A stretch of 64,000 nucleotides of DNA, from NCBI GenBank assembly GCA_945898045.1, contig CAMDGG010000002.1, forward strand, positions 19,231 to 83,230, written 5' to 3'. The notes below the pieces were generated by a model, which saw nothing but the letters and a program-made list of their open reading frames with translations, was not told the DNA's origin and did no database searches. Of this stretch, positions 24,290-56,405 are shown piece after piece. Origin of the DNA: a bacterium UBP8_UBA817 (GTDB lineage Bacteria > Margulisbacteria > Marinamargulisbacteria > SXXA01 > SICP01). How positions within the stretch are numbered: position 1 is the stretch's first letter; every line of letters begins with the position of its first letter. The translations under genes and the position numbers were made by a program.

Positions 24290-25528
24290 ATGAAACAGCA
24301 AAAAAGATATTTAGAAGACGTCATAAAATCACTTTGCTTCAACACTAAAAATCCAAAAATGGCCTTTATTGCTGGGCCTCGACAAGCAGGAAAGACAACG
24401 TGTGCAAAACATCTTTTAGCAGAAAGAAAAAATAGCTACTACCACAATTGGGACGACAAAACCGTCCGAAAAATTTGGGCCAAAGATCCTAAAGAACTAC
24501 TAACCAAAAAAAAGGCGCCTAAACCGCTCATTATTTTTGACGAAATACATAAAGCCAAAGGCTGGAAAAGAACCCTAAAAGGACTCTACGACACCCTCAC
24601 GTTTCCACAAGATATTGTGGTAACAGGCAGCACAAAACTCAACACATACCGCAAAAGTTCCGACAGCCTAATGGGCCGCTATTATTACTTCCGACTACAT
24701 CCATTTTCACTCAGTGAATTAACAAACCTCAACCATATATTACTCCCTGAACAACTCACAAAAAAACTTTTGCAAACCCAAGCCATTCCATCTACACCAA
24801 AAGAAATAAAAACGCTTGAAGACCTCATGACTTTTGGCCCATTCCCAGAACCGTATCTAGCAAAATCCAAACAAATTTTGCAACTGTGGCAAATGGGCCG
24901 AGTCGACAAGGTCGTCAATGAAGAACTGCGAGATCTAAGTAAACTCCCCGAACTTAATCAAATCAGCCTGCTCGTAAGCTTGCTACCAGAACGTGTCGGA
25001 AATCCAATCAGCATCACAACACTCAGACAGGATCTAGAGGTAGCGTATACCACTATCAAACGATGGCTCACTTATCTTGAAGCCCTTTATTACCATTACG
25101 AAATCAAACCCTATACACACAAAATAAATCGAAGCCTTAAAAAAGAAGGCAAACTCTATCTTTGGGACTGGAGTGAGGTTGAAAATGAAGGCAGTCGATT
25201 TGAAAATTTGATCGCATCCCATCTATTTAAATATTGTGATTACCTCGTTGATACTGGCCAATCCAGAGCAGAGCTAAGATACGTAAAAACCAAAGAAAAA
25301 AAAGAACTCGATTTCGTCGTCCTCAATCACAAAAAACCCTTTCTCGCCATCGAGGTTAAATTACACGATGAAAGCCCCTCTTCAAACTGGAAAACATTAC
25401 TTCCAAAATTAAATCTTGACTTCGGAATACAAGTCGTCAAAACACCCCATATTTACCAAAGACATATATTCCCATGGGGAACCATTTATGTAATGAGTGC
25501 TGAAAAACTACTCAAGTTTCTTGCCTAA
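24290..25528 (+). CDS. COG1373-type AAA+ ATPase (AAA_14 plus a DUF4143 PD-(D/E)xK-like C-terminal domain)
   Basis: Walker A AGPRQAGKTT and Walker B LIIFDEIH. The overall architecture is shared with the paralog at 41524-42687. Confidence 0.7.
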   Translation: MKQQKRYLEDVIKSLCFNTKNPKMAFIAGPRQAGKTTCAKHLLAERKNSYYHNWDDKTVRKIWAKDPKELLTKKKAPKPLIIFDEIHKAKGWKRTLKGLYDTLTFPQDIVVTGSTKLNTYRKSSDSLMGRYYYFRLHPFSLSELTNLNHILLPEQLTKKLLQTQAIPSTPKEIKTLEDLMTFGPFPEPYLAKSKQILQLWQMGRVDKVVNEELRDLSKLPELNQISLLVSLLPERVGNPISITTLRQDLEVAYTTIKRWLTYLEALYYHYEIKPYTHKINRSLKKEGKLYLWDWSEVENEGSRFENLIASHLFKYCDYLVDTGQSRAELRYVKTKEKKELDFVVLNHKKPFLAIEVKLHDESPSSNWKTLLPKLNLDFGIQVVKTPHIYQRHIFPWGTIYVMSAEKLLKFLA

Positions 25529-28548: not shown

Positions 28549-28953
28549 TGGGGGTGTATTTGGCTTCGACGGGATAGATCTAAGATATGAGACGCGAGCC
28601 GAGGAGATGCCAGGCCTCGTAAAAAGGCATAAAAAAAATAGTTAACACAACTAAATTAGGTAAAACTCTAGCTTTTGATTTCGCACCAGCGAGGTTGGCA
28701 GCCTAGAAACCAAGCCACAGCCGCTTAATTAAGCAGCTGCGCCGTCCTCAAAGTCGTTGACGCTTTGAAAGACGCAACCAGTCAACTAGCCACTAGGTTT
28801 TGATCTCGGCCTAAGTAGCGAAATCAAGAAATCTCGCGATTAAACGCCTCGTTTTCAAGACGCTTAATCGTTAAATCAACTGAAAACTACGCTCGTAGTT
28901 GCCTCTTATCAAAGCTATTTCGGACACCGGTTCGATTCCGGTCACCTCCACCA
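28549..28953 (+). ncRNA. ssrA: tmRNA (SsrA)
   Basis: 5' end GGGGGTGTATTTGGCTTCGACGGG. 3' tRNA-like end GGACACCGGTTCGATTCCGGTCACCTCCACCA with a G3:U70 wobble pair in the acceptor stem. Internal tag reading frame GCT TTT GAT TTC GCA CCA GCG AGG TTG GCA GCC TAG, which would encode AFDFAPARLAA*. Confidence 0.9.
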
Positions 28954-28962
28954 TAATCCAAA

Positions 28963-29814
28963 CTAGCCCAAGATATTTTCTTGTTGATTTTGCAATTTCA
29001 AAATAGCTTTCGCATTTAATGCCGTAACCACTTTTTTACCGGTCTTAGCCTCCAATTCCTTCCGGGCCACCTTCGCAACATTTCCACCTTGTTTCGCCAC
29101 GATTTTACTCTCTTCAAAATCCTTTGGATTGACTACCGCCGAAATATCTTTGGTGGATGCTTCTGCAAGCATATTTAAAATCAGTTCGGTGTTCGTCATG
29201 TTATCCCGGAGATTTTCCTTCTTCAAACCTTTCAGTGCCCTATAGTCTTTAGTAGTTTTATCGGCCCATGCTTTGGTTATAATATCGGTGAGCGTTGCAA
29301 ACTGAACACCCTCCTTCAGACCTCGTTTTTTCCATTCATTTGTAAGTTCTTTACGTATCTCAATACTTTTCAGCCGTTGATTAATCCAGCTTTCAGAATA
29401 CCCCAATTGCAAATACTGCTCTAAAGCACGATCGATACTCAGTTCTGGATCTTGCATCTCATCTAGTCTTTCAGACGCTACTTGTGCAAGCCATAGTTTA
29501 AAGGGCTCAGCTTTGGGCGATGGGATAGATTGTATAAGGCGGAAAAGTTGTTCTGTGTCGGCAACATCGGTCATCCGCATTTTGCCATCAGGGGCCTTCA
29601 TTTTCAAACCGTTACAATTTGTAACGGTTTCATTCCCCTCATCCTTTAATCGCTTTTTTAACACCCGCCAATACACCTGAGGATTTGGGCTTTCTGTTAA
29701 TACGAAAATCACATCCACAACGGACAAATACCATTTTTCCTGATCAGCATCCCATAGCGTTCTTACTTTTTTGTCTTCAAATATTTTTATATCGTTTTCT
29801 TTTTTCATATTCAA
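28963..29814 (-). CDS. DinD-like (DNA-damage-inducible protein D family) protein with an N-terminal Bro-N-type domain
   Basis: IKIFEDKKVRTLWDADQEKWYLSVVDVIFVLT (Bro-N-like). KGLKKENLRDNMTNTELILNMLAEAST parallels E. coli DinD RKGLKKNQKILDHMGSTELAANLF. Size 283 aa versus 274 aa for DinD. Confidence 0.7.
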   Translation of the reverse strand: MNMKKENDIKIFEDKKVRTLWDADQEKWYLSVVDVIFVLTESPNPQVYWRVLKKRLKDEGNETVTNCNGLKMKAPDGKMRMTDVADTEQLFRLIQSIPSPKAEPFKLWLAQVASERLDEMQDPELSIDRALEQYLQLGYSESWINQRLKSIEIRKELTNEWKKRGLKEGVQFATLTDIITKAWADKTTKDYRALKGLKKENLRDNMTNTELILNMLAEASTKDISAVVNPKDFEESKIVAKQGGNVAKVARKELEAKTGKKVVTALNAKAILKLQNQQENILG

Positions 29815-30828
29815 TTACAAATTCCTTAACAGTTCATCAAAATCACTACTACTATTTTGAATTTGCTCCAAATGAAATAAATCATATTCTTTCTCCGCCA
29901 ACGCAATAGCTACATCATGAGAAACCTTTCCGCTATCTTGTAATATATCCTGCTCATTAAATTTCAAAAAAGAATCCATCTTTTCTGCCCAATCATTCAT
30001 CGTCATCACCTGACGATTTTGAGCCTGAAATTCTGCAAAATCCAGATACATCGTCACAATGCGATTAAGCTGATCTAATTCACTAGCCGTCAAATAATTT
30101 TTAGCGATGCCCACATCCGCTTTTCGTATCATACCCTTCGGCGAATTTTTCCAATTCGTGAGCCCCATATTTTCTTTTTCACGATCTACACGATCATAAA
30201 TTAGCTCAGCAGCCGTTTGCCCCGTAATAGCAAAATGCAATTTATTTTGAACCGTCGCAAAAAACTGCTGCGTTATTTCATGGTTCGGGTCATAGTCGGA
30301 ACTACACTTGGCATAAATATCCGTAATCTTCTGATAAAACCGCCGTTCACTAGACCGAACATCACGTATTCTCGCCAACTGCTCGTCAAAATAGTCTTTT
30401 CCAAAAGGTTGATTAGGATTTTTAAGGCGCTCATCATCCATCGTAAATCCTTTGATAATATATTCCTTGAGCCGCTCCGTTGCCCATATACGAAACAAAG
30501 TAGCATTCCGAGAATTTACCCGATACCCAACCGAAATAATGGCATCGAGATTGTAGCATTCTATTTGCCTAGTAACAGTTCTCAAGCCCTCTTGTTGAAC
30601 TTGTGCAAAATTTGCACAAGTTGAATCCCTAGCCAATTCTTCGGCTAAATAAATATTTTTTAGATGCTTGGTCACCACACTTCTGTCTACAGCAAACAAA
30701 GTTGCAATCTGAGACTGAGTTAGCCATAAAGTTTCATTATAAAGATGAATTTCTACATTCACCTTTCCATTCGGAGTTGTATAAAATAAAAAATTTTTGA
30801 TCACACCATAAGAACTAATATTTGTCAT
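29815..30828 (-). CDS. RhuM-family protein (virulence protein RhuM / PF13310-like)
   Basis: YNLDAIISVGYRVNS...FRIWATERLKEYIIKGFTMDDERLK is the hallmark RhuM block. 337 aa, as in Salmonella RhuM. Confidence 0.75.
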   Translation of the reverse strand: MTNISSYGVIKNFLFYTTPNGKVNVEIHLYNETLWLTQSQIATLFAVDRSVVTKHLKNIYLAEELARDSTCANFAQVQQEGLRTVTRQIECYNLDAIISVGYRVNSRNATLFRIWATERLKEYIIKGFTMDDERLKNPNQPFGKDYFDEQLARIRDVRSSERRFYQKITDIYAKCSSDYDPNHEITQQFFATVQNKLHFAITGQTAAELIYDRVDREKENMGLTNWKNSPKGMIRKADVGIAKNYLTASELDQLNRIVTMYLDFAEFQAQNRQVMTMNDWAEKMDSFLKFNEQDILQDSGKVSHDVAIALAEKEYDLFHLEQIQNSSSDFDELLRNL

Positions 30829-31940
30829 AAAATCATCAAGCCACGATGAATTTTATTACCAGTCAGCGTTTCAGAAATATCACTTAATCCGGTCTTAAAA
30901 TCCATTTCTAAATACTCAAATACACTAATCGCACCTGGGCCCAACAAAGATTCAAAACGTTTCTTCACCTGACCAGAATTATCGGGATTATAAACCAAAA
31001 ATTTTCTCAAGAGCCTATCCCCAGCTGTACCTAATCCAAACAAATGTTTAAAAAATGAATCTGTTTCTGGGAGCGAAAATCCAATAACAACTATATATTC
31101 AGCTTTCCCCAATTCATCTGCAGCTTTTTTCCAAATAGTAGACAAAGAATTGTGATAACCCGACTTATTCCATGTAGGCGGAACAATAAAAGACGTAGGG
31201 CTTTGCTTCACAGAACGTTCACTAAAATTATTGGTTAATTTTTCACTAAGAATCAAAGGTCCGTTTCGTCCGATATTATCCCAACTATTAAAATCTTTTT
31301 TGGCATCACTTAAAAAATCTGCCACCTGATATACCTTCACCTCAGATTTTTGACTTACCCAATTCAAAGAACCATGAAGTTTAAATAAATTACAAAATTT
31401 AGACTTTTTAATATTTGAATCAAACCCATAATAAGGAGTTAAATCTGAATTCTGTAAAGCAATATCAAGAGCAACATCATAATTAAAAGTCAATATGGAT
31501 GATTCAAAGTTATACTTATTAAGGTTCTTTAATAATTCCACAAATCCACCGTAACTCCCAGAAGAGGAAAATACACCCGAATTATCTATAGAAAATAAAA
31601 TTGATTGTTCAAGAGTTGAGACTATAACTCTCACAAGAGAGGCTATCAGCTTCTTAATATCTTTCTGTGGATAATCTGGCAACTTGTTGATTAATTGAGA
31701 AAACTCAAAAAGAGTATAAATAGACTCAATATTATTCAAATCCAGTAGTGATTTAGAATGAATTTTTTGAAGCTTTTGGATAGCAAAAAAAACTTGTTCA
31801 AATTCTATCCTGTACTTTTCCACTTTTCCTTCTAACAATAAATCTCTAGATACATTCAAAAAATCTTTCATGAGAGGCGCACCACAATCTTGAGATGCTC
31901 CCGCACCTAAAATAAAAACTATTTTCTTAGTTGCTGACAT
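30825..31940 (-). CDS. SIR2-like (SIR2_2/DUF4020-type) domain protein with a ~170 aa uncharacterised C-terminal region. Candidate NAD+-depleting defence effector.
   Basis: KKIVFILGAGASQDCGAPLMKDF (GAGxS motif), LTFNYDVALDIAL, FKLHGSLNW. Overlaps both neighbours (ATGA at 30825-30828; 14 nt overlap at 31927-31940). Confidence 0.7.
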   Translation of the reverse strand: MSATKKIVFILGAGASQDCGAPLMKDFLNVSRDLLLEGKVEKYRIEFEQVFFAIQKLQKIHSKSLLDLNNIESIYTLFEFSQLINKLPDYPQKDIKKLIASLVRVIVSTLEQSILFSIDNSGVFSSSGSYGGFVELLKNLNKYNFESSILTFNYDVALDIALQNSDLTPYYGFDSNIKKSKFCNLFKLHGSLNWVSQKSEVKVYQVADFLSDAKKDFNSWDNIGRNGPLILSEKLTNNFSERSVKQSPTSFIVPPTWNKSGYHNSLSTIWKKAADELGKAEYIVVIGFSLPETDSFFKHLFGLGTAGDRLLRKFLVYNPDNSGQVKKRFESLLGPGAISVFEYLEMDFKTGLSDISETLTGNKIHRGLMIL

Positions 31941-32307
31941 TTTTAATCCCCCCTAGCAAAAAATACGGCGAAATGAATCTGAGTAATTGTATAGCCTCAT
32001 AAGAATTAACCCGATAGCCAACGGCAATGATGGCATCAAGATTATAGAAATTGGTTTGGTAGGTTTTTCCGTCTTCGGCAGTATGCGCAAAAATTGCACT
32101 AACTGAATCTCCGCTTAATTCTTCCTCTGAAAAGATGTTTTTAAGGTGCTTTGTGATAACAGTACGATCAACGCCAAACAACTCGGCCATCTTTTTCTGA
32201 GACAACCAAATCGTTTCATCCTGAAAAACTACCTCAACCTTAACCTCTCCCTTTGGAGAGGTATACATCAAAAACTGAGATTCAACAGGCAGTAAATCTT
32301 TATCCAA
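31927..32307 (-). pseudogene. Truncated RhuM-family N-terminal domain paralog (126 aa). It either reads into or was replaced by the SIR2-like gene.
   Basis: About 60% identical to the N-terminus of the 29815-30828 protein (FLMYTSPKGEVKVEV...YNLDAIIAVGYRVNS) and lacks the C-terminal two-thirds. Confidence 0.6.
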
Positions 32308-32395
32308 AAAAAATTCCTTTTAACCCTTATAAATTAAATAACAGCAGAAATTATAAAGTATTAAAAGAAATTAATCTTGTCTACAAAAAACAGCC

Positions 32396-33178
32396 TTACT
32401 CTTCCTCATGAGACCCAGCTGGCACAAGCCCCGTCCCCAAAACATACGTTCCGGTTAAATAGGGATACACCAACGGGGCAAAATAGAGCGCTTTTGCTAT
32501 GCCTTCTTGATTAAATGCTTTGGGCTTACTCCCAAATCCAAACCCCACATGAAACGCTATATCAGGCACATCCGCATATTCACGTCGGTTGTGTGAAACA
32601 GGCGATCGTATATAAGACAATGTTAATTTAGTATCCAAGGTAACAAAATAAATATCGTTATCCCAAACCAGGCGCTCATAATTAAACTGTATCGTTGGCC
32701 CCCCCAAATAAAACCCCGTCAAGCCCTTTTGAAAGAAAAGGGGACGCCCTGCTATTTGTACATCGGGATGTGCATAGGCAACCCCAAGTCCAAACCTAAA
32801 CCGATCATCCCCATACCGCTTCCCAAAATTGTAATACAACAAATTATATCCATCACTAATACTTAAATAAGTCACAATATCATTGGTATTAGCCAAATAA
32901 ACTTTATGGTGAATTAATTCAAATCCCTGCCCATTTTCTCCATGCCAATCTTCTAGTCGAAAAATCCACCAGTGAGAATCTGAAAATGATTTATTTTGAT
33001 AAACTGCATTAATAGATTGATCCGGTAAATCTTCTAATTTTATTGTTAAGCGATTAGGAAGACTCATCGATCCGCCCATAAACGTAGACAAGTGCCAACC
33101 ATCTTGGTTCTCAGAAAAAACACTTCCAGAAATCAAGAAAAATAACGCCAAAATAATCCCTCGCAATTGCAACCTCAT
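32396..33178 (-). CDS. Hypothetical outer-membrane or secreted beta-rich protein
   Basis: Signal peptide MRLQLRGIILALFFLISGSVFS; aromatic- and Gly-rich beta-strand pattern. Confidence 0.4.
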   Translation of the reverse strand: MRLQLRGIILALFFLISGSVFSENQDGWHLSTFMGGSMSLPNRLTIKLEDLPDQSINAVYQNKSFSDSHWWIFRLEDWHGENGQGFELIHHKVYLANTNDIVTYLSISDGYNLLYYNFGKRYGDDRFRFGLGVAYAHPDVQIAGRPLFFQKGLTGFYLGGPTIQFNYERLVWDNDIYFVTLDTKLTLSYIRSPVSHNRREYADVPDIAFHVGFGFGSKPKAFNQEGIAKALYFAPLVYPYLTGTYVLGTGLVPAGSHEEE

Positions 33179-33191
33179 ACATTACTCCTTA

Positions 33192-34055
33192 TCAAATTTT
33201 ATTAAGTTCCAGCCAACGGTCTACTTTATGTAAATACCGCGTCATTAAAAGTGAAATCCCCCGAGGTTCATTACCATTTCCATGAACCAAAACCACGCTG
33301 CCATTCTTAGGAACTTCACCCTTCGCAAGCCAGGCATCACTACCCAACGCAATTAAGTGCAAGTCACGCAACTTTACCTTTAAAATATCAGAGGAAATCA
33401 GTCCTGGAAATCGAAAAAAAACAGACGGCACAATACCTACCGCCAACATCTGCTGCTCATTTTTCAAAACCTCGTCTTCCAAGACAATACCCGAACTTCG
33501 CATAAAATCAGGCTTCACCGGATGGCTCAAAGAATGATTCACCCACGTCACACGCACTCTTCCCTCCGACGCCTGACGCTTAAGCCACACCAAATCTTCC
33601 GCATGTTGAGACAACCACACCCCAGTCACAGCTATCGCCATAGGAATAGGCGCTTCAGAACTCGGCAACTGCGTAATCACCTCCCGCACAAAAGGTTTCT
33701 TACTCGGACACAAATCCACAGTCAAAAATAATCCATTCACCGAAGACCCCGAATGCCGAACTTCACCAGAAGAAACCAATCGCATAAAACGGGACTGCGA
33801 AACACGTTTCTCAGACACTTTTTTAGACAAAAACAGATCAATCTCTGTCGCCATTTTCACCTCTGTCTCGAGAGTATCTGGCGAGACAATTAAATATTCA
33901 GGATGTCCATCTTGCTCGAACGATCTCAGCGCAATGTGAAGCTGACCATTGGCATCGTTAAATGGAATGAAGATAGGTTTATAGCTAGAAATCTGAGAAG
34001 CAAAAGAAATCCCGCAAAAGAATATAGAAATTACACAGACGCTTCTAAAAATCAT
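33192..34055 (-). CDS. Secreted CE4/NodB-type polysaccharide deacetylase-like protein with a degenerate motif 1
   Basis: NodB motifs: TVDLC (where TFDDG is expected), HSLSHP, FRFPG, LGSDAWL and VVLVHGN. Signal peptide. Confidence 0.5.
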   Translation of the reverse strand: MIFRSVCVISIFFCGISFASQISSYKPIFIPFNDANGQLHIALRSFEQDGHPEYLIVSPDTLETEVKMATEIDLFLSKKVSEKRVSQSRFMRLVSSGEVRHSGSSVNGLFLTVDLCPSKKPFVREVITQLPSSEAPIPMAIAVTGVWLSQHAEDLVWLKRQASEGRVRVTWVNHSLSHPVKPDFMRSSGIVLEDEVLKNEQQMLAVGIVPSVFFRFPGLISSDILKVKLRDLHLIALGSDAWLAKGEVPKNGSVVLVHGNGNEPRGISLLMTRYLHKVDRWLELNKI

Positions 34056-34059
34056 CGAA

Positions 34060-35439
34060 TTACAACCGCATCATAAGCGCATCATATTCGATATGTGCTT
34101 TTTTTAATTCCAATGTGTACTTTAAGTTATCAATTTTGGCTTTTGTTAGATTCTGCTCACGAATATTCAAGATAAACATGTCGCTATCCCCATGTAGGAA
34201 TTTCTTTTGTTCTGCTACAACCATTTTTTGCGCAACTTCTATTTCTAAGTTGCTATTTTTGACGGTTTTTTCTGCCGTTAAAATACGTTCATGCACTATA
34301 GCCAAGTCTTGCTTGAGCTGATCAATAATCAGAGACGTTTTGAGCGACAGCTGTCGTTTCTTACTGTCTAGCGCATCTCGCTTTGCACCTTTTTCTCTAC
34401 GTTCGATGGGCGTTGAAATACTCAGCTTAACTTTGCCCTCATCCTGCAAACTACCACTTCCATTACCAGAATCCGAAGAATACTCATAACTTAAATCAAC
34501 CGCTGGCAAATTCTGATTTTCATACAACGCGATCTCATTTTGAAGTTGCTTTATCTGTGTGTCTAAATCAAAAAGAAAGGGATGGATATCAAGCAACTGG
34601 ACAATATCTTGCGTAGGTTGAATCGGGTAACGCAGTGCGTAATCTTGTGTATCAGGGATGGTGTAATGATTACACGACGTAACAAGTCCCTCTGGATCTC
34701 GCACATAAAGCGCTAACATGCGCTTCTGAATTTCTAAATCTCGATCTGCTTCCATTAATTGATTTTGACGTTGTAACAAATATTGCAAATTTTCAATGAG
34801 ATAAATGTCCGGCAAGTCCCCTTTTTTGACCCGCGCCTTAATGATCTCTTGGCGTTTATTGGCCAGCTCGTACAATCCAACATATTCCATTTTCAACTGA
34901 TACGCATAGATCCAAGTCCAATACTCTTTTGATGCTTTTTGCAGAACAGATTGCACAACAAAGCGCTGTTGTTGGTATTGGTTCACTAGATCTAGCTCTG
35001 CATTAGTCAAAGTGGTTCGCTTGGCATCTATCCAGCTATCACGTAGCACAGAGAGAGAAATGCCCAATCCAGTTTCTCCACGGCTTCGGGTGTTGAATTG
35101 GTCTTCATATGTCGGGAATGTCCCGCTTGATTGCCTATAGTGTCCATATACTTTTGCATTAGCAAAATAAAGTGGTTTTTCTATTGAGGCTTTGCCATAT
35201 TGACCCGTGTAATATCCTTCGGTTCGGCTGGCATTTTCGTATTTTATTTTTGTATCAAATTGTCCTGCAGCACTTTGTTGTTCGAAACGTCGTTGTTCAA
35301 TGGCTTCTGTAGCCGACAAAACGCTTGGAAAGTGTCTCATTACCGAGTCTTTCACATCCTTTTCGTATAATACAGTTTGTGCAGAAAGTGTTGAAATGCA
35401 TAGACAAACGATGATTAAAACAAAAAAAAGTGACTTCAT
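34060..35439 (-). CDS. TolC-family outer membrane efflux protein
   Basis: Signal peptide, two repeated coiled-coil/beta-barrel halves, 459 aa. Confidence 0.75.
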   Translation of the reverse strand: MKSLFFVLIIVCLCISTLSAQTVLYEKDVKDSVMRHFPSVLSATEAIEQRRFEQQSAAGQFDTKIKYENASRTEGYYTGQYGKASIEKPLYFANAKVYGHYRQSSGTFPTYEDQFNTRSRGETGLGISLSVLRDSWIDAKRTTLTNAELDLVNQYQQQRFVVQSVLQKASKEYWTWIYAYQLKMEYVGLYELANKRQEIIKARVKKGDLPDIYLIENLQYLLQRQNQLMEADRDLEIQKRMLALYVRDPEGLVTSCNHYTIPDTQDYALRYPIQPTQDIVQLLDIHPFLFDLDTQIKQLQNEIALYENQNLPAVDLSYEYSSDSGNGSGSLQDEGKVKLSISTPIERREKGAKRDALDSKKRQLSLKTSLIIDQLKQDLAIVHERILTAEKTVKNSNLEIEVAQKMVVAEQKKFLHGDSDMFILNIREQNLTKAKIDNLKYTLELKKAHIEYDALMMRL

Positions 35440-36539
35440 TTAAATTTTATCTTTTTTTTCACAACTTCTTTGTCGTCTGAATGGTGAGAAACCTCAGGCA
35501 AGGGTGGGAAATTATTAAGTTTTCGCCAGATTTCGTATCCCGTACTAACCTGATTAAGCAATACCCAACCAGACGCCTGTGCGCCTACACGCAAATATTG
35601 GGAATCTGGCCAAGCGTTATCTTCCTTATCCGGGATAACAATAATGCGTAATTTACCGTTTTCAGAAATAAATTGATCAACAATTTTTACGACGCCTCCG
35701 AATGTATTAATAGCAGTAGACGGCCAACCGCTAAATTGAATAGCGGGCCATCCTTCAAATTGCAACCGCACTTTTCTACCAGGGTAAACCAGACGCATAT
35801 CATTTGGATCAATATACATTTCTACAGCTGGCCGAACTAAAATAGGTACAAAAGTTGCAATAGACTGCCCCTCTTTAATGCGTGCAGACAAACTACTAAA
35901 TTGAGCAATATAAATAAATCCATCTTGTGGCGCCGTAATAATCTGTGTGTTTTGCCGAGACAATTTGACTTCGGCTTGCGCTAATTTAGCCGCAGATTCG
36001 GATTGTTTTGCGCGCACTTCTTCTAATTTTATTCTGGATTCTTCGAACGTTTTTCTTGAGCTAATTCCCTCTTCAAATAATTTCTTTTGCCGATTGAAAT
36101 TGAGTTGCGCCGTTTGTGTCACAATTGCCAGCGATTCATACTGTTCACGAAAAGAATCTCTTTCCTGAAGAATACGCTCTATTAATTCCGGGTCATTATC
36201 TAGAATCTCAACAAGTTTTTGGCCTTTTTTTACAGCTTGCCCATCTATGACGTACCACTCTTTTATGCGGCCACTCACCAGAGCCGTGATTTGTGTCTGC
36301 CGCTCATTGGGACTAAAAGCAATTAAACGACCTTTCCCATAGGAAGTTTGAAACCACGGGGTTAATACCGTAAATAAGCTAAGCAACAAAAAAATGATGA
36401 GCAAATACTTAATAGATTTCATATATGGCGGGCGTTCTGTATAGTCGTTTAACAATGAGAAATAACGCAGAGTGCTCGGCTCGAATTCGATATCATGGAT
36501 ATCTGGGAATTCTGACTTATGATTGGATGTATGCATCAT
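35436..36539 (-). CDS. HlyD-family membrane fusion (periplasmic adaptor) protein
   Basis: N-terminal transmembrane segment, long coiled-coil, HlyD-like lipoyl and beta-barrel regions. Translationally coupled to the tolC-like gene. Confidence 0.75.
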   Translation of the reverse strand: MMHTSNHKSEFPDIHDIEFEPSTLRYFSLLNDYTERPPYMKSIKYLLIIFLLLSLFTVLTPWFQTSYGKGRLIAFSPNERQTQITALVSGRIKEWYVIDGQAVKKGQKLVEILDNDPELIERILQERDSFREQYESLAIVTQTAQLNFNRQKKLFEEGISSRKTFEESRIKLEEVRAKQSESAAKLAQAEVKLSRQNTQIITAPQDGFIYIAQFSSLSARIKEGQSIATFVPILVRPAVEMYIDPNDMRLVYPGRKVRLQFEGWPAIQFSGWPSTAINTFGGVVKIVDQFISENGKLRIIVIPDKEDNAWPDSQYLRVGAQASGWVLLNQVSTGYEIWRKLNNFPPLPEVSHHSDDKEVVKKKIKFK

Positions 36540-38205
36540 AGGACTTCCTGTCTTCCAAGAGTTTTAATCCGGCTTGATCACATGCCATATAATGGTCAAA
36601 TAAGTAGGCATCATGATAGGTATTACTAAAGTAAATCAGGGTAATATCAGGGTTAGAGTCTAAGTGCGCAAAGAGTGCTTTGTTGTGAAGCGCCGCAAAG
36701 CTAATATGATGGTTCATCATAATGTATTTGGACTTATTGAGTATGGCTCGGCCTAACTTTAAGAGAACCAATTCTCGGTGGGTAAGAGGAGATCCATTAG
36801 AATCCAGCACCGTATCAACCCCATCTTCTAGTTGGGTAATCGTATCCATAATTCCCACTCGGGTCAGTATTTCTGTGATTTTAATCGTATCCGGATCTTC
36901 TAATCCATAAGATAGATATTCTTTGATACTCAGATTTAGAATCTCTGACTCGTCGATAATAGAAATACCTTGCCTATAATAATGGATATCGATGTCATCA
37001 AGCAGTTCATTATTAACACTAACCACACCTTTTTCCGGAGCATAGAATCCCATTAAGCTACCAATAAGAAGATTTTTATATTCTCTTTGGACTGTTGCAA
37101 TCAGTGTTCGAGATCCTTTTTTAAACGTGTGATTTATTTCTATCTCTTCATTAAAGAGAGCGAATTTAGCACCTTTATACGCTATCGTTTCTGGAACCAA
37201 AATCATGCGTCCCGTCATGTCTTGTTCTATATCAAATCGATAAAACGAGATCAATTTTTCACAAGACGCCTGTAAGTCATAAAAACTTCCCAGATAGGAA
37301 CCTGATTTTGCAAGATTTGCAAAGATAGATGAAAAAATAATTTCAGTGGCAACAAGTTGTCCCAACGACAATTGCCCATTGAGCACAAAATATCCAGAAA
37401 TAAACAATAAAATAGAGTTTCCTAAAACATATAACCCAAGAAGATAACAAATTTGTGAAAAGAGATGTTTAAAATGATTCTTTCGTGCATCGATATAATA
37501 ACCAGTAAGGGTATTCGACCGTTTGGTTGCGTAGTTTTTCATTTGTTTTGATTTAAATAAGAGATGATTTCTGCCCATATCCAACAACCAATCTGCGGTT
37601 TGATACTTTTGATCAGATTCGTCAATAGCATAGGCAATCGCTTGCTTCGAATGTCCTTTCCAGATTGCGTACAAAATGAGCAAAACAATACAATTGAAAA
37701 GTAAAAATACAGGATGATAAAACGAGGTCAGTATCACACCGGCTAAAATCTGAAGTGCCAGTGAATATCCACCGATCAGTACATAAGGAAGCGATTTATC
37801 AATTGAGATAATTTCAAAAAATTTCTGCATCAGAGTCGTTCTGTTGATGCCCTGCAATGCAGCATATTTGGCATAAACCACTCGGGTCGTCATCAACGCC
37901 ACAATGCGTGCAAAGAACCGTCTACGAAATACTTCCGCGATATATTCTTGAATGCCATACGACACCGCAGACAACGTTAAGATCACCAACAAAACAACCG
38001 ATACAGTAATAAGCCGCTGCAAGACCCCAACGTTGGCAATCGAGTTGATTAACGCCTGTATCGATAAAGGCAGTATAAGACTAAGTACCGTAACCACTGC
38101 ACCGTACACAAAAAGGAGAAAGTAATAGTTTTTTTCTGGGCCAAGAATAATACCCAGAACACTTTTATAGTTAATGAGAGATAATTTCTTCATTTTCAAA
38201 AGCAC
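36517..38205 (-). CDS. ABC-exporter-like protein (type I secretion HlyB-like transmembrane domain) with a fully degenerate, presumably non-catalytic nucleotide-binding domain
   Basis: Six-TM exporter transmembrane domain. NBD-like C-terminus in which Walker A, the signature motif (LTHRE where LSGGQ is expected), Walker B (IMMNHH where ILLDE is expected) and the H-loop are all lost. Confidence 0.6.
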   Translation of the reverse strand: MLLKMKKLSLINYKSVLGIILGPEKNYYFLLFVYGAVVTVLSLILPLSIQALINSIANVGVLQRLITVSVVLLVILTLSAVSYGIQEYIAEVFRRRFFARIVALMTTRVVYAKYAALQGINRTTLMQKFFEIISIDKSLPYVLIGGYSLALQILAGVILTSFYHPVFLLFNCIVLLILYAIWKGHSKQAIAYAIDESDQKYQTADWLLDMGRNHLLFKSKQMKNYATKRSNTLTGYYIDARKNHFKHLFSQICYLLGLYVLGNSILLFISGYFVLNGQLSLGQLVATEIIFSSIFANLAKSGSYLGSFYDLQASCEKLISFYRFDIEQDMTGRMILVPETIAYKGAKFALFNEEIEINHTFKKGSRTLIATVQREYKNLLIGSLMGFYAPEKGVVSVNNELLDDIDIHYYRQGISIIDESEILNLSIKEYLSYGLEDPDTIKITEILTRVGIMDTITQLEDGVDTVLDSNGSPLTHRELVLLKLGRAILNKSKYIMMNHHISFAALHNKALFAHLDSNPDITLIYFSNTYHDAYLFDHYMACDQAGLKLLEDRKSYDAYIQS

Positions 38206-38263
38206 ATTCTAACAAATTCCTTTCATCTTGTGGATTCTAATTACAATTACGATATTAAAGTGT

Positions 38264-40603: not shown

Positions 40604-41527
40604 CGAAAGATGCTGCTTAATCCAAGCTTGCCCTTCCTCAATAGTATGAAATTCACCCGCAATCTGAGCCGCATAAATCTGTTTCAAAAGCGTCCCCATT
40701 TCTGAACCCGCCTTCACACCTAAGGCCTGCAAATCTCTCCCTAAAATAATCGGCTTAGGTTTCTTAGACGCTTCTACTTTTCTAGCAATCGAAGACGGCA
40801 TACCAAAATGAGCTACCATCATACCCAGCACATCATTCGGATAATCAGCCAATCGCACGATGCCCAATTTTTCTGCCGCAAAAAGCCCCAAAACGGGCTT
40901 CTTGGAAAGCAAAATCATCTTCCGAGTCTCCGCCCATTTGCGATCATTTGAAATATCTTCTAATGAAAGGGAGCTGCACAACGCGACTGTCTCGGGTGCA
41001 ATATCCAGTTCAAATCGGGCCGAAAATTGCATTGCCCGAAACACCCTCAGGGGGTCTTCTGAAAATCGAGGCCCCACATGCCGAAAGAACCGTCTCTCCA
41101 AGTCATTCCGGCCCCCAAACGGATCCAAAAACTCACCCGTTTCCATCACAAATCCCATGGCATTCATCGTAAAATCCCGACGCGACGCCGCCTCTTCAAA
41201 AGACATATCCCCATCTGCTTCAACTTCAAAATCCACATGCTTCTTGCCAGTTTTACGTTCTCTGCGTGGCAATGAAAAATCAATCTCCAGACCATCCACT
41301 TTCATTTTCACAACAGAAAAAAAGGCCCCCACCAAATTCACCTTTCCAAAAGCAGCCAAAATCCGAACCAGTTCGTCATAAGAAGCAATCCCAAAAACTT
41401 CTACATCAAAATCAGTAACAGGTATTCCCAACAACGAATCTCGAACACACCCGCCCACTAAAACAGCACGCCCCCCTAATTTATGAATTGCTTGTGAGAT
41501 TTTGGCTAAGCTTTCAGGAAAAATCAC
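40598..41527 (-). CDS. cca: CCA-adding tRNA nucleotidyltransferase (minimal class II head and neck)
   Basis: GGCVRDSLLGIPVTDFDVEVFG and the RRDFTMNAM motif. Confidence 0.8.
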   Translation of the reverse strand: MIFPESLAKISQAIHKLGGRAVLVGGCVRDSLLGIPVTDFDVEVFGIASYDELVRILAAFGKVNLVGAFFSVVKMKVDGLEIDFSLPRRERKTGKKHVDFEVEADGDMSFEEAASRRDFTMNAMGFVMETGEFLDPFGGRNDLERRFFRHVGPRFSEDPLRVFRAMQFSARFELDIAPETVALCSSLSLEDISNDRKWAETRKMILLSKKPVLGLFAAEKLGIVRLADYPNDVLGMMVAHFGMPSSIARKVEASKKPKPIILGRDLQALGVKAGSEMGTLLKQIYAAQIAGEFHTIEEGQAWIKQHLSL

Positions 41528-42687
41528 AATAACCCTTCATGCAACCAAGAGACGAGCGACCGAATTTTGACTCCATTAGGATATGATTTTTCTCGATTAC
41601 ACTCCAAAACCAACTGCACTCGATTAGGAACCTCAATTTTATTCTCAAAATAAGAAAACTGGGAACTCAAATTCATATCAGCATATTTTACTTCAAATAA
41701 TGAATGAGGCACTTGATTCATAACTACTAGAAAATCGATTTCCTTGCCCTCTTTAGTACGAAGAAAATGTAAACTCCCCTTTATGCCTTTCGTATCTCTC
41801 AAAAAAGAAAGATCTCGATAGAGAGATAAAGCAACCAAATTTTCAAGTTTAGCCCCTTCAGAATTAGGAAAATCAACACGGCAATAGTCATAAAAATAAT
41901 ATTTAGAATCTTTTAAAATGGCCCTCGCAACATTCTTAGAATAAGGAGTCACACGAAAAATAATATACAAATTCTCCAAAAGCTGAAGCCATCTCTTCAC
42001 TGTATTGGCATCACATTCCAAATCACGAGCCAAATTGCTATAAGAAACCGTTGAACCTACCCTGCGAGACAACAACTCAATCAATAACTCAATTTTTTTA
42101 ATATCTCGAATCGTCGCCAAATCAATCAAATCTTCTCGCAAAATCACATCCAGATGACTCTGCTTCCACCGATCATAAAAAACTTTATCTCCATTCAAAA
42201 AAGGTTCTGGAAATCCACTACACTCCCACAATCGACGAAACGCTTCTTTAGGTTCAAACAAAACCAAGGCTTCTTTAAAATCAACAGGAAATAAACTGTA
42301 CTGAAAAAAACGACCCGCCAAAGAATCCCCTACTTTTTTGTACGTATCTAATTTGGCGCTTCCAGTCACAAGCCATCGAGGAGGAATACCCTGCACATCA
42401 TAAATACCTTTTAGCCATCTCTTCCAAGAATCCATTTTATGAACTTCATCCAATATGACCAAAGAACTATCACGACGCCAAGATGCTTCCTTGAGGGCTA
42501 TACGATCAGGCGCATAATCATAGTTAAAATAATCCGCATTAGGATAAAGACCCCGAGCCAACGTCGTTTTACCTGATTGCCTTGGACCAGAAAGCAAAAC
42601 AATTTTTGTTTCTAAGTCAGTCAAAATATACGAAACTAGGGATCGATTCATTAACGACCATTCTGACATAAATTCCGTTTTAGTCAA
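41524..42687 (-). CDS. COG1373-type AAA+ ATPase (AAA_14 plus DUF4143), paralog of 24290-25528
   Basis: Walker A SGPRQSGKTT and Walker B LVILDEVH. Translationally coupled (ATGA) to cca. Confidence 0.7.
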   Translation of the reverse strand: MTKTEFMSEWSLMNRSLVSYILTDLETKIVLLSGPRQSGKTTLARGLYPNADYFNYDYAPDRIALKEASWRRDSSLVILDEVHKMDSWKRWLKGIYDVQGIPPRWLVTGSAKLDTYKKVGDSLAGRFFQYSLFPVDFKEALVLFEPKEAFRRLWECSGFPEPFLNGDKVFYDRWKQSHLDVILREDLIDLATIRDIKKIELLIELLSRRVGSTVSYSNLARDLECDANTVKRWLQLLENLYIIFRVTPYSKNVARAILKDSKYYFYDYCRVDFPNSEGAKLENLVALSLYRDLSFLRDTKGIKGSLHFLRTKEGKEIDFLVVMNQVPHSLFEVKYADMNLSSQFSYFENKIEVPNRVQLVLECNREKSYPNGVKIRSLVSWLHEGLL

Positions 42688-54465: not shown

Positions 54466-55833
54466 TTGCCAGAACACATATGGACAAAACATATTAAAAT
54501 GCCATTTTATGAGAAAAAAATTCATTTTTATAAATTTAGTGATATAATCCAGCCCATGTTAGTAGAATTCTCAGCGAAAAACTTTAGATCCATCAACGAA
54601 AAACAAACTATATCCTTTTTACCGGTTAAGGCCAAAAGCTCTGGGATAGAAAAAGGTGAGCTCCCAAATAATATCACTTCAGAAAGTATCCCACTTCTTA
54701 AAACTATCATTCTTTTCGGAAAAAATGCTTCCGGAAAAAGCAACCTACTAAAAGCCATCCGGCGACTACAAATATTAGTTATACAATCTGGGTCAATTTC
54801 ACCAGAAACAAAAATACCTTACGACCCATTTAAACTTGATAAAAACAAAACAAATGAATCTACAACTTTCGAAATTAAATTTCTCATTAAAGAAACTGTT
54901 TTTAGATATAAAATTGTCTTCAATCAAACGCAATTTTTACTAGAAGAACTATACAGCAACAAAGCCAAATTATTTGTGCGTCACCATGGAAAAACCATCA
55001 ATTTTGGACCGTCTCTACATGGACCAAAAAAAGCCATTGAAAAATTAACTGGGGAAAACCAACTATTTTTGTCAAAAGCCGGAACAAACAATTTTGAGGA
55101 ATTTAAAGAAATTTATCATTTTCTAACCTCTATCAATATCCGAATAAATATTTCAGACGAGATCCATAAAAGCTGGGATTACTACCTCGATAACTTAGCT
55201 AAAGCAATACCACAAAAAACGGCAGAACAATTTATTATCAATATATTAAAAGCTGCCGACGTAGGCATTGAATCTTTCGGTTATAAAAAAAGAGAAGAAA
55301 AAGAGTTTAAATTCCCAGAAGGAATGCCTGAAGATATAAAAGAGACCATCCTTTCTCAAAACAGACTAGCCTTAAAAACAATTCACAAAAGATTCGCAAA
55401 CGGGGACGAAGAAGACACGACGGATTTTGCAATAGAAGAAGAATCTGACGGAACACTCATGTTCCTAAAAACTACCATAAGAACTCTAATTAGTATTTCT
55501 ACAGGCTCCCCATTAATAATCGATGAACTTGACATCAATTTACATCCAAAGTTAGTTGAAGTTATTCTCGATCTATTTCATAGCCAAAACAACAAAAATG
55601 GCCAGTTAATATTTACAACACACAACACATTGTTTTTATCAAAAAAATATTTTCGTAGAGATCAAATATATTTCGCAGACAAAGAAGAAAATGGTTCCAG
55701 TGAATTCTATTCTTTAGCAGCAATTGAAGGCATTCGCCCAGACGCCCCTTACGACAAATGGTATATGAGCGGGAAGTTTGGTGCAGTACCTCTGACAAGC
55801 ATAGAAGAAATAACAAATAACTTCATTACATGA
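54466..55833 (+). CDS. AAA_21/AAA_15-type ATPase (AbiLi-like, OLD-family ATPase module). The likely true start is MLVEFSAKNFRSI at ~54556.
   Basis: Walker A FGKNASGKSNLL; C-terminal Walker B LIIDELDINLHP; conserved N-terminal NFRS motif. Confidence 0.7.
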   Translation: MPEHIWTKHIKMPFYEKKIHFYKFSDIIQPMLVEFSAKNFRSINEKQTISFLPVKAKSSGIEKGELPNNITSESIPLLKTIILFGKNASGKSNLLKAIRRLQILVIQSGSISPETKIPYDPFKLDKNKTNESTTFEIKFLIKETVFRYKIVFNQTQFLLEELYSNKAKLFVRHHGKTINFGPSLHGPKKAIEKLTGENQLFLSKAGTNNFEEFKEIYHFLTSINIRINISDEIHKSWDYYLDNLAKAIPQKTAEQFIINILKAADVGIESFGYKKREEKEFKFPEGMPEDIKETILSQNRLALKTIHKRFANGDEEDTTDFAIEEESDGTLMFLKTTIRTLISISTGSPLIIDELDINLHPKLVEVILDLFHSQNNKNGQLIFTTHNTLFLSKKYFRRDQIYFADKEENGSSEFYSLAAIEGIRPDAPYDKWYMSGKFGAVPLTSIEEITNNFIT

Positions 55834-56405
55834 CCCAATATCGAAAAGAAAAAAAACGCCCCCTCAAGAAACAATTCCTAATATTATGCGAAGGCGAAAC
55901 AGAAGTTTTGTATTTTAAAACATTCAGAAAAGAAAACAGAGTTAAATTATCTGCAGTTGACGTTATTCCATACAAACCTATTAACCATGACCCAAATGGC
56001 CTTGTAGAACAAGCTATCAAAGAGAAAAAAAAAGGTGAGTACGAAAAAATCTGGGTTGTTTTTGATAGAGATTGCCATCACAAAATAGATACCGCTCAGA
56101 AAAAAGCGCAAGTAAATAAGATCAATATTGCATACTCAAACATATGCTTTGAATTTTGGATCTTGCTCCACTTTGAGGAAACTTCAAGAGCATTCAGAAG
56201 TAAAGACGAATTAGTCAAATACTTAAAAAAAGAACATAATCATGCAAAAGACATTAACCATTACGATAAATTAAAACCAAATATGAAATTGGCTATAGAA
56301 CGAGCTAAGAAACTAAAAAAAGAAAATCAAAAAACAACACTCACTTTCGAAACAAACCCACAAACTAATATTCACGAAATCATTACTGACCTTCTCGATT
56401 GTTAA
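55830..56405 (+). CDS. RloB-like protein (AbiLii-like, Toprim-related)
   Basis: N-terminal FLILCEGETEVLYF (the RloB ILIVCEGEKTEpnYF motif) and VVFDRD. Coupled to the ATPase gene (ATGA). Confidence 0.65.
   Translation: MTQYRKEKKRPLKKQFLILCEGETEVLYFKTFRKENRVKLSAVDVIPYKPINHDPNGLVEQAIKEKKKGEYEKIWVVFDRDCHHKIDTAQKKAQVNKINIAYSNICFEFWILLHFEETSRAFRSKDELVKYLKKEHNHAKDINHYDKLKPNMKLAIERAKKLKKENQKTTLTFETNPQTNIHEIITDLLDC

Follow-up and report, generated by a model that had tools for sequence, protein, structure and literature searches.

A probable piecemeal cluster of defence-type genes beside the tmRNA gene of a Margulisbacteria genome, with a stand-alone SIR2-fold protein

Four minus-strand genes lie directly beside the transfer-messenger RNA (tmRNA) gene, ssrA, in the genome of the bacterium UBP8_UBA817 (Margulisbacteria), within a stretch of 64,000 nucleotides (nt) of contig CAMDGG010000002.1 (positions 19,231 to 83,230), hereafter the window. 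They encode a DinD-family Bro-N protein, a RhuM-family protein, a SIR2-fold protein and a truncated second RhuM. Our analysis points to a small defence cluster that was built piecemeal, made up of three independent single-gene modules and one scar, a reading to which we assign a probability of roughly 0.7. According to this reading, RhuM would combine an N-terminal DNA-binding domain containing a helix-turn-helix (HTH) with an all-helical putative toxin domain and would act as a single gene, the DinD-family protein would be of a kind frequently found alongside RhuM, or fused to it, in restriction-modification (R-M) loci, and SIR2 would act alone, depleting NAD+ upon infection and probably forming an oligomer like its nearest structural relative. 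A second RhuM paralogue would once have stood upstream of the present RhuM. A horizontally acquired, GC-poor cassette of ~1.17 kb, carrying SIR2 with its own ~50-nt leader and ribosome-binding site, would have replaced the 3′ two-thirds of that paralogue, and SIR2 would now be expressed from the old RhuM promoter, leaving a remnant that probably has no function beyond its expression signals. The overlapping starts and stops would reflect co-transcription rather than a shared mechanism.

A first-pass annotation made from the sequence alone had placed four overlapping open reading frames (ORFs) beside ssrA, and the ORF list, ARAGORN and Rfam located them, with the same overlaps, as follows (window coordinates; aa, amino acids).

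28550-28953, plus strand: tmRNA gene (ssrA), found by ARAGORN and by Rfam RF00023 (158.4 bits against a gathering score of 47, full-length model match)
28947-28953, plus strand: TCCACCA, the 3′ end of ssrA, crossover point (attB core) for elements in other strains
28963-29814, minus strand: DinD-family Bro-N protein, 283 aa, PADLOC family PDC-S13 (ORF list, Pfam, PADLOC)
29815-30828, minus strand: full-length RhuM-family protein, 337 aa, PADLOC family PDC-S05 (ORF list, PF13310, PADLOC)
30825-31940, minus strand: compact stand-alone SIR2-fold protein, 371 aa, predicted NAD+ consumer and compositional outlier (motifs, AlphaFold model, GC content)
31941-31992, minus strand: junction or leader, 52 nt, from the end of RhuM homology to the SIR2 ATG (sequence reading, tblastn, alignment)
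31927-32307, minus strand: RhuM N-terminal remnant ORF, 126 aa, with its RhuM-homologous part at 31993-32307 (PF13310, tblastn)
32308-32395, minus strand: AT-rich intergenic stretch upstream of the remnant, the putative promoter position for the four co-oriented genes

Gene linkage and junction anatomy

The first-pass annotation had not recognised the four genes as a defined system, which our searches bore out, and had implied that they may form a new system of SIR2, RhuM and DinD, for which the searches gave no support. We examined the 10 kb on either side of 83 SIR2 loci (80 plus three from exact look-ups) by tblastn, and none contained a RhuM, a RhuM N-domain or a close DinD-like homologue; given the weak match of the window protein to E. 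coli DinD, remote Bro-N/DinD relatives would escape such a single-query search. SIR2 was likewise absent from all 80 metagenomic RhuM loci. When the ORFs within 4 kb of SIR2 were clustered all against all, no neighbour family occurred in more than 5 of about 75 loci, and the commonest one (5 loci) resembles an integrase. Scanning 150 immediate neighbours, drawn from 38 loci, with Pfam and PADLOC models revealed no recurrent partner; matches were scattered, comprising three integrases, two HEPN proteins and single instances of PD-Lambda-1, NsnA, SspH, ThsB, LmuA, Old and others. The SIR2 homologues are usually monocistronic, with median intergenic gaps of 146 and 78 nt, and individual ones were found in a prophage, beside an OLD-family ATPase and beside a ParE/RHH pair. 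Two outcomes had been named in advance as speaking against the first-pass proposal, failure of the profile assignments and absence of co-occurrence outside this genome. The Bro-N/DinD, RhuM and truncated RhuM assignments were upheld by Pfam hidden Markov models, the first two by PADLOC models as well, while co-occurrence was absent from the 83 SIR2 and 80 RhuM loci alike. By that annotation's own criterion the four genes are therefore not a conserved system, and the four-gene combination is refuted as such.

The packing of the genes is nevertheless tight, and tight packing beside a tRNA-like hotspot is not by itself evidence of one system. Nine bases separate the end of the tmRNA gene from the first minus-strand ORF. 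By ORF coordinates, the DinD-like and RhuM genes abut at 29814/29815, RhuM and SIR2 overlap by 4 nt (30825-30828), and SIR2 and the remnant overlap by 14 nt (31927-31940). On the minus strand, a scan of 28.4-33.3 kb detected nothing resembling a terminator between the four genes; repeat, promoter and terminator scans over the same interval gave nothing beyond chance.

The anatomy of the junction between the remnant and SIR2 bears on the insertion scenario. The remnant matches PF13310 (1.4e-09) at model positions 2-45 only, keeps its native start, holds the HTH-containing domain and is 50-56% identical to the N-termini of the full RhuM and of a third RhuM found in another strain (contig L004). 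It aligns with RhuM from the first residue to residue ~107 (window 31993), across the conserved ...NLDAIIAVGYRVNSYEA segment, after which the two diverge fully. Its final 19 residues are unrelated to RhuM and correspond to the SIR2 leader read in frame, and that leader (31941-31992) has a AGGGGGGA Shine-Dalgarno-like run 6-7 nt upstream of the SIR2 ATG. No RhuM C-terminal remnant was found elsewhere in the window. At its other end, SIR2 has ~9 extra residues relative to its homologues, predicted with low confidence, and its stop overlaps the start of RhuM. We also considered a hidden fusion or frameshift joining the remnant and SIR2; it was ruled out, as the alignment of SIR2 with its homologues starts at residue 1 and none of 150 representatives has an N-terminal extension.

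Composition separates the genes as well. The GC content is 32.4% in SIR2, 37.5% in RhuM, 40.4% in the DinD-like gene and 38.8% in the remnant, compared to 42.7% for the window, and GC at third codon positions (GC3) ranges from 25% (SIR2) to 40% across the four genes. In 53 of 60 loci, the GC content of the SIR2 homologue was lower than that of its flanks by more than 3 points; the median difference was -7 points. The gene-by-gene differences argue for piecemeal acquisition over arrival as a single island. Junction anatomy and composition together suggest that SIR2 entered the second RhuM gene, bringing its own ribosome-binding site; the locus would then clearly illustrate how one defence gene can insert into another and probably be expressed from it.

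The window is not alone in having a foreign toxin-type gene behind a RhuM 5′ fragment. One metagenome contig (Ga0194052_1000618, 247-8745) carries a type I R-M operon crowded with embedded genes; the order is KilA-N, RhuM N-fragment, Fic/DOC, GNAT, HsdM, full RhuM, a 184-aa unknown protein and HsdS. Additional RhuM copies, some of them partial or apparently truncated, were present in 6 of the 80 RhuM loci.

Several observations weigh against the piecemeal reading. The block of four genes shows 100% conservation across all five to seven same-species contigs, and the tight coupling of their junctions would also fit a functional interplay that evolved locally. No allele with an intact second RhuM and without SIR2 was found among the same-species contigs. 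The neighbours of SIR2 homologues are mostly housekeeping genes, with defence genes only occasional. A consensus scan detected no strong sigma-70 match in 32308-32395, and the promoter, the operon structure, and the NADase activity and anti-phage role of the SIR2 family are features that we infer. The conserved block and the overlapping starts and stops, together with the intact start, HTH-containing domain and plausible ribosome-binding site of the remnant, would suit an alternative in which all four genes, or the RhuM N-terminal ORF and SIR2, form one system, the RhuM-type domain sensing or regulating and SIR2 serving as effector. We consider this highly improbable. The combination occurs in no other genome searched, SIR2 homologues are never N-terminally extended, the 19 residues at the end of the remnant come from reading through the SIR2 leader, and GC content points to separate origins.

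The SIR2 protein and its family

The first-pass annotation had called the 371-aa protein SIR2_2-type and noted its GAGAS and HGS motifs. The corresponding Pfam model (PF13289) scored marginally under its gathering score (23.3 vs 24.5 bits), but the designation was confirmed by other means. PADLOC SIR2 models matched the protein at 3e-12, a profile of 26 homologues retrieved the SIR2 of the E. coli SIR2-HerA (Nezha) system from the PDB at 4e-8, and a precomputed PF13289 match is present in several of the homologues. An AlphaFold2 (AF2) model (predicted local distance difference test, pLDDT, 84; predicted TM-score, pTM, 0.87) had the SIR2 of SIR2-HerA as its best fold match (E 2e-10, TM-score 0.57), followed by classical sirtuins, KomC and DSR2. 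There were 80 PDB fold matches at E<=1e-3, and the best 50 listed were all SIR2-family proteins or SIR2-containing complexes. On the predicted structure, assignment to the SIR2 fold is unambiguous. The motifs GAGAS (residues 12-16), FNYD (152-155) and KLHGS (187-191) are intact and are invariant across the 26 diverse homologues, which, together with the fold match to Nezha SIR2, suggests that the protein is catalytically competent. None of the PADLOC or NCBIfam defence models matched it at threshold (SIR2_antiphage reached 29 bits against a cut-off of 500).

The protein represents a large family. We found more than 1200 homologues of near-constant length (~362 aa) that are 42-48% identical, and an exhaustive profile search at E<=1e-30 yielded 1238 clusters at 50% identity. 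The best 150 of these range from 240 to 411 aa and match end to end, with no domain fusions and no N-terminal extension. The 80 loci examined, one genome per species, come from more than 20 phyla, and the taxa represented include Chlorobium, Gamma-, Beta-, Alpha- and Deltaproteobacteria, Acidobacteria, Planctomycetes, Chloroflexi, Nitrospirae, the candidate phyla radiation (CPR) and archaea.

SIR2 domains in defence act through NAD+ depletion, as described in a paper on defence in S. thermophilus that concerns only SIR2-HerA. One may ask whether SIR2 is an immune gene at all rather than a mobile sirtuin-like enzyme with another role, such as protein deacylation or ADP-ribosylation, or a selfish toxin. 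The mostly housekeeping neighbourhoods of its homologues would be in keeping with such a role, as would the failure of any defence model to reach threshold and the absence of a sensor domain or partner. We nevertheless find a non-immune role distinctly unlikely, as the fold is of SIR2_2 type and its closest solved relatives are defence SIR2s and not CobB-like deacetylases. The family is patchily distributed across phyla and consistently GC-poor; its members turn up in a prophage and next to an OLD-family ATPase or toxin-antitoxin genes, and the one studied here lies among defence candidates; and single-gene SIR2 defence has a precedent in sole-Sir2, to which we return below.

More tentatively, the ~362-aa family may be a widespread single-protein immune module that operates with neither a sensor domain nor a partner, a possibility that we put below even odds. 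If so, infection would be sensed by the body of SIR2 itself or through its oligomerisation, and the cassette studied here would be a natural capture of a SIR2 gene behind a resident RhuM promoter. As far as we could determine, this minimal partner-less SIR2 family is the only undescribed part of the locus, RhuM and the DinD-like protein being members of families already catalogued. As a representative of a large minimal family, the window protein could show how an NADase is silenced and triggered without HerA, SLOG, APAZ or a DSR-type sensor.

RhuM, the DinD-like protein and the tmRNA integration site

Both of the other intact genes belong to families that PADLOC defines as single-gene candidates. 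RhuM matches PF13310 at 3.3e-115 (384 bits against a threshold of 33.7) and the PDC-S05 model PDLC04851 at 5.5e-147 over residues 11-336, that is, full length. It has more than 8000 homologues, about 70% identical across phyla. When a PDC-S05 (RhuM) gene was tested alone, plating of T7 and T5 fell about 1000-fold (PMC12881386). RhuM-like proteins have also been proposed as toxins, located in R-M loci and often fused to DOC (PMC3710099). PDC-S05 genes are usually embedded in type I R-M operons, whereas no R-M gene lies near the window RhuM. The AF2 model of RhuM was poor (pLDDT 57), being confident at residues ~30-115 only (pLDDT 70-93), and gave no significant Foldseek match. The model of its C-terminal domain is too poor to point to a mechanism for RhuM.

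The DinD-like protein, whose likelier start is the ATG at 29808, contains a Bro-N domain (Pfam 1.2e-10, 42.3 bits against a gathering score of 25.6) and matches the PDC-S13 model PDLC04920 full length (2.6e-137, residues 3-278). The phage orthologous group phrog_15286 also matches it over its full length (5e-124), and homologues 62-66% identical to it occur on six IMG/VR viral contigs, mostly near the contig end; no RhuM was found near the DinD-like gene on those contigs. E. coli DinD is induced in the SOS response and inhibits RecA filaments. Like the window protein (283 aa), E. coli DinD (274 aa) has a Bro-N domain followed by a helical C-terminal region and falls within the PDC-S13 models, matching PDLC04919 at 2.4e-121 and PDLC04920, the sub-model that fits the window protein, at 2.2e-16. 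Aligned directly, the two proteins show little similarity (26% over 74 residues, E 0.002), but joint membership of PDC-S13 makes the label "DinD-family" right at family level. Sequence searches of the PDB with the DinD-like protein and with RhuM gave no matches, and we found no paper in the searchable literature on PDC-S13 as a tested system. As a separate observation, the NCBIfam model of Deinococcus DdrC matches residues 141-225 of the DinD-like protein far below its cut-off (2.4e-4), and DdrC (PDB 7qvb) is also the best, non-significant Foldseek match of the poor RhuM model (E 0.047), which may hint at a DNA-binding helical module shared among the DinD, RhuM and DdrC families.

DinD-like and RhuM genes, unlike SIR2, recur together in type I R-M loci. 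PDC-S13-like genes stood directly beside RhuM in 3 of the 80 RhuM loci (L107, L112 and L142), in either order. A 468-aa PDC-S05 model carries an N-terminal extension to which the N-terminus of E. coli DinD can be matched, as it can to part of a type I S-subunit model, and a fused dinD and RhuM coding sequence within a type I R-M system is on record (PMC9881135). These findings, with the abutting stop and start in the window, could be taken to mean that the DinD-like and RhuM genes are a functional pair, the split form of a fused Bro-N/DinD-RhuM protein, and that SIR2 is an unrelated later insertion upstream. We regard this as unlikely. The two genes are seldom adjacent, and then in either order, PADLOC defines each as a single-gene candidate, a lone RhuM gave 1000-fold protection (PMC12881386), and the viral contigs carry the DinD-like gene with no RhuM nearby.

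The first-pass annotation had also suggested that ssrA is an integration hotspot, and comparison of strains bears this out. The UvrA encoded in the window shares a 90%-identity cluster with MSR89027.1, a protein annotated to a Candidatus Margulisbacteria bacterium, and near-identical contigs are present in several metagenomes. Three same-species contigs from other samples (L002, L004 and L093) follow the window at 99-100% identity as far as 28947/28948/28954 and part from it there. In L093 (11962-14888), ssrA is directly followed by a gene for a 519-aa large serine recombinase, accompanied by a DUF7222 protein. In L002 (12995-16658), from the same sample (ERZ27280309), the cassette is joined to a single 496-aa protein that combines a Phage_integrase/tyrosine-recombinase with an AAA/STAND-like ATPase, and a 454-aa YdjM-domain protein is likewise encoded on the cassette side; the assembly breaks inside the mobile element of L093/L002. 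In L004 (9346-10616, GROS21 metagenome), the cassette is joined to a third RhuM paralogue truncated at residue ~199, whose N-terminus and NLDAIIAVGYRVNSYEA segment closely resemble those of the window remnant and which is followed by an unannotatable partial ORF. The far junctions in L002 and L004 consist of degenerate T-arm-like sequence and then CCACCA, as would be expected of attP-derived ends. Since strains diverge exactly at the CCA end of ssrA, the tmRNA end is a live attB, with the cassette just outside it, and an active integration site is thereby placed in Margulisbacteria, a poorly studied phylum.

Whether the cassette itself arrived by this route is another matter. Its position directly distal to an active attB, the mobile type of all its genes, the PHROG match and the 62-66% identical viral homologues of the DinD-like gene would suit an origin as the decayed remainder of one island integrated at ssrA. 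We find such an origin doubtful. As the first-pass annotation had reported, the window has no integrase, the interval from ssrA to 38 kb included, and its ssrA 3′ end is not repeated. Searches of the window for a second copy of the ssrA end (its last 25 and 16 nt with <=3 mismatches, T-loop-like patterns, and TCCACCA) returned the gene itself or chance-level matches, leaving no such repeat at the far end of the cassette. The range in GC3 and the location of the SIR2 junctions inside a RhuM gene, not at an att site, also count against a single island, and no cassette-less strain was found. The cassette is present in every same-species contig found, with polymorphism on its ssrA-proximal side, and exact-protein look-ups of both flanking genes returned cassette-bearing contigs or contig ends and no empty-site allele. 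In a related metagenome-assembled genome (MAG), GCA_009691415.1, the gene order after uvrA is different and the contig stops before ssrA.

Two further observations concern the tmRNA gene and the strain comparison. The tag peptide given by ARAGORN is APSSKSLTL* (28739-28768). tmRNA tags usually have a hydrophobic ending of the ...LAA or ...VAA type, so this is either an unusual tag or one for which the resume codon has been mis-assigned. Between the window and L004 (compared range 28948-38239), the count of differences is 0-1 over 28948-33447, an interval holding the cassette and a 260-aa gene, and reaches as many as 18 per 500 nt in 35.4-38.2 kb. This mosaic divergence points to recombination tracts or to a cassette region that swept recently.

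Several other parts of the window are worth recording. Upstream of the cassette lies a co-oriented run of five genes (32396-38205, minus strand) encoding an ABC-type protein (562 aa), an HlyD/RND-adaptor-like protein (367 aa) and proteins of 459, 287 and 260 aa. Most members have no Pfam match; weak matches point to a polysaccharide-deacetylase for the 287-aa protein and an Imm33-like protein for the 260-aa one, and the run may be an export system. A 455-aa ORF at 54466-55833 (plus strand) matches PADLOC AbiLi (4.7e-79), and an AbiLii match (3.4e-28) among the window ORFs most likely belongs to the overlapping downstream 191-aa ORF (55830-56405, plus strand); together these would be a two-gene AbiL abortive-infection system ~22 kb from the cassette. 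Two AAA_14 + DUF4143 ATPases are encoded at 24290-25528 (plus strand) and ~41524-42687 (minus strand). The former, located between uvrA and dnaB, 3 kb upstream of ssrA, matches the PADLOC candidate PDC-S01 (5.7e-51), a family matched by two window ORFs; in a related MAG (L184), uvrA is followed instead by a ShlB/TpsA two-partner secretion pair.

Comparison with known SIR2 systems

Several known SIR2 architectures couple the catalytic domain to other parts: DSR proteins have a large sensor region within a protein of about 1000 aa, Thoeris combines SLOG and ThsB, and SPARSA combines APAZ and a prokaryotic Argonaute (pAgo). The closest structural relative of the window protein is the SIR2 of SIR2-HerA/Nezha (PDB 8sub, 8j4u and 8w9l), which it resembles in size (360-415 aa), in the N-terminal GAGxS motif and in a catalytic His within a KLHGS context, although the two are only 16-17% identical. 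No HerA/DUF87 was present among the called genes around the locus, and none was a recurrent neighbour in about 75 homologous loci.

DSR1 and DSR2 are reportedly single-gene SIR2 defences. DSR2 was among the fold matches of the window protein (E ~1e-4), but the large sensor region of these proteins does not occur in the window family (240-411 aa in the best 150). No ThsA model of Thoeris matched, the whole 371 aa being modelled as a SIR2 fold with a helical insert and no SLOG, and a ThsB-like protein was found once among 150 proteins flanking SIR2 homologues. The pAgo-associated PADLOC models (Aga_SIR2), which correspond to SPARSA, gave weak and partial matches (1.7e-11) confined to the SIR2 part, with no APAZ, and no pAgo was found among the called genes at the locus or the Pfam-scanned flanking proteins of SIR2 homologues.

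A precedent for a partner-less SIR2 is provided by sole-Sir2, a single-gene SIR2 for which NADase activity has been shown and a homologue of which protects against T2 and T4 (bioRxiv 10.1101/2024.12.27.630466). Compared by description only, sole-Sir2 is ~440 aa long and has a non-SIR2 N-terminal substructure followed by a C-terminal SIR2 domain resembling DSR2, whereas in the window protein the motif begins at residue 12, the family measures 362-371 aa and the nearest fold is that of Nezha. In its way of working, the window SIR2 resembles these systems only through the catalytic domain that they have in common.

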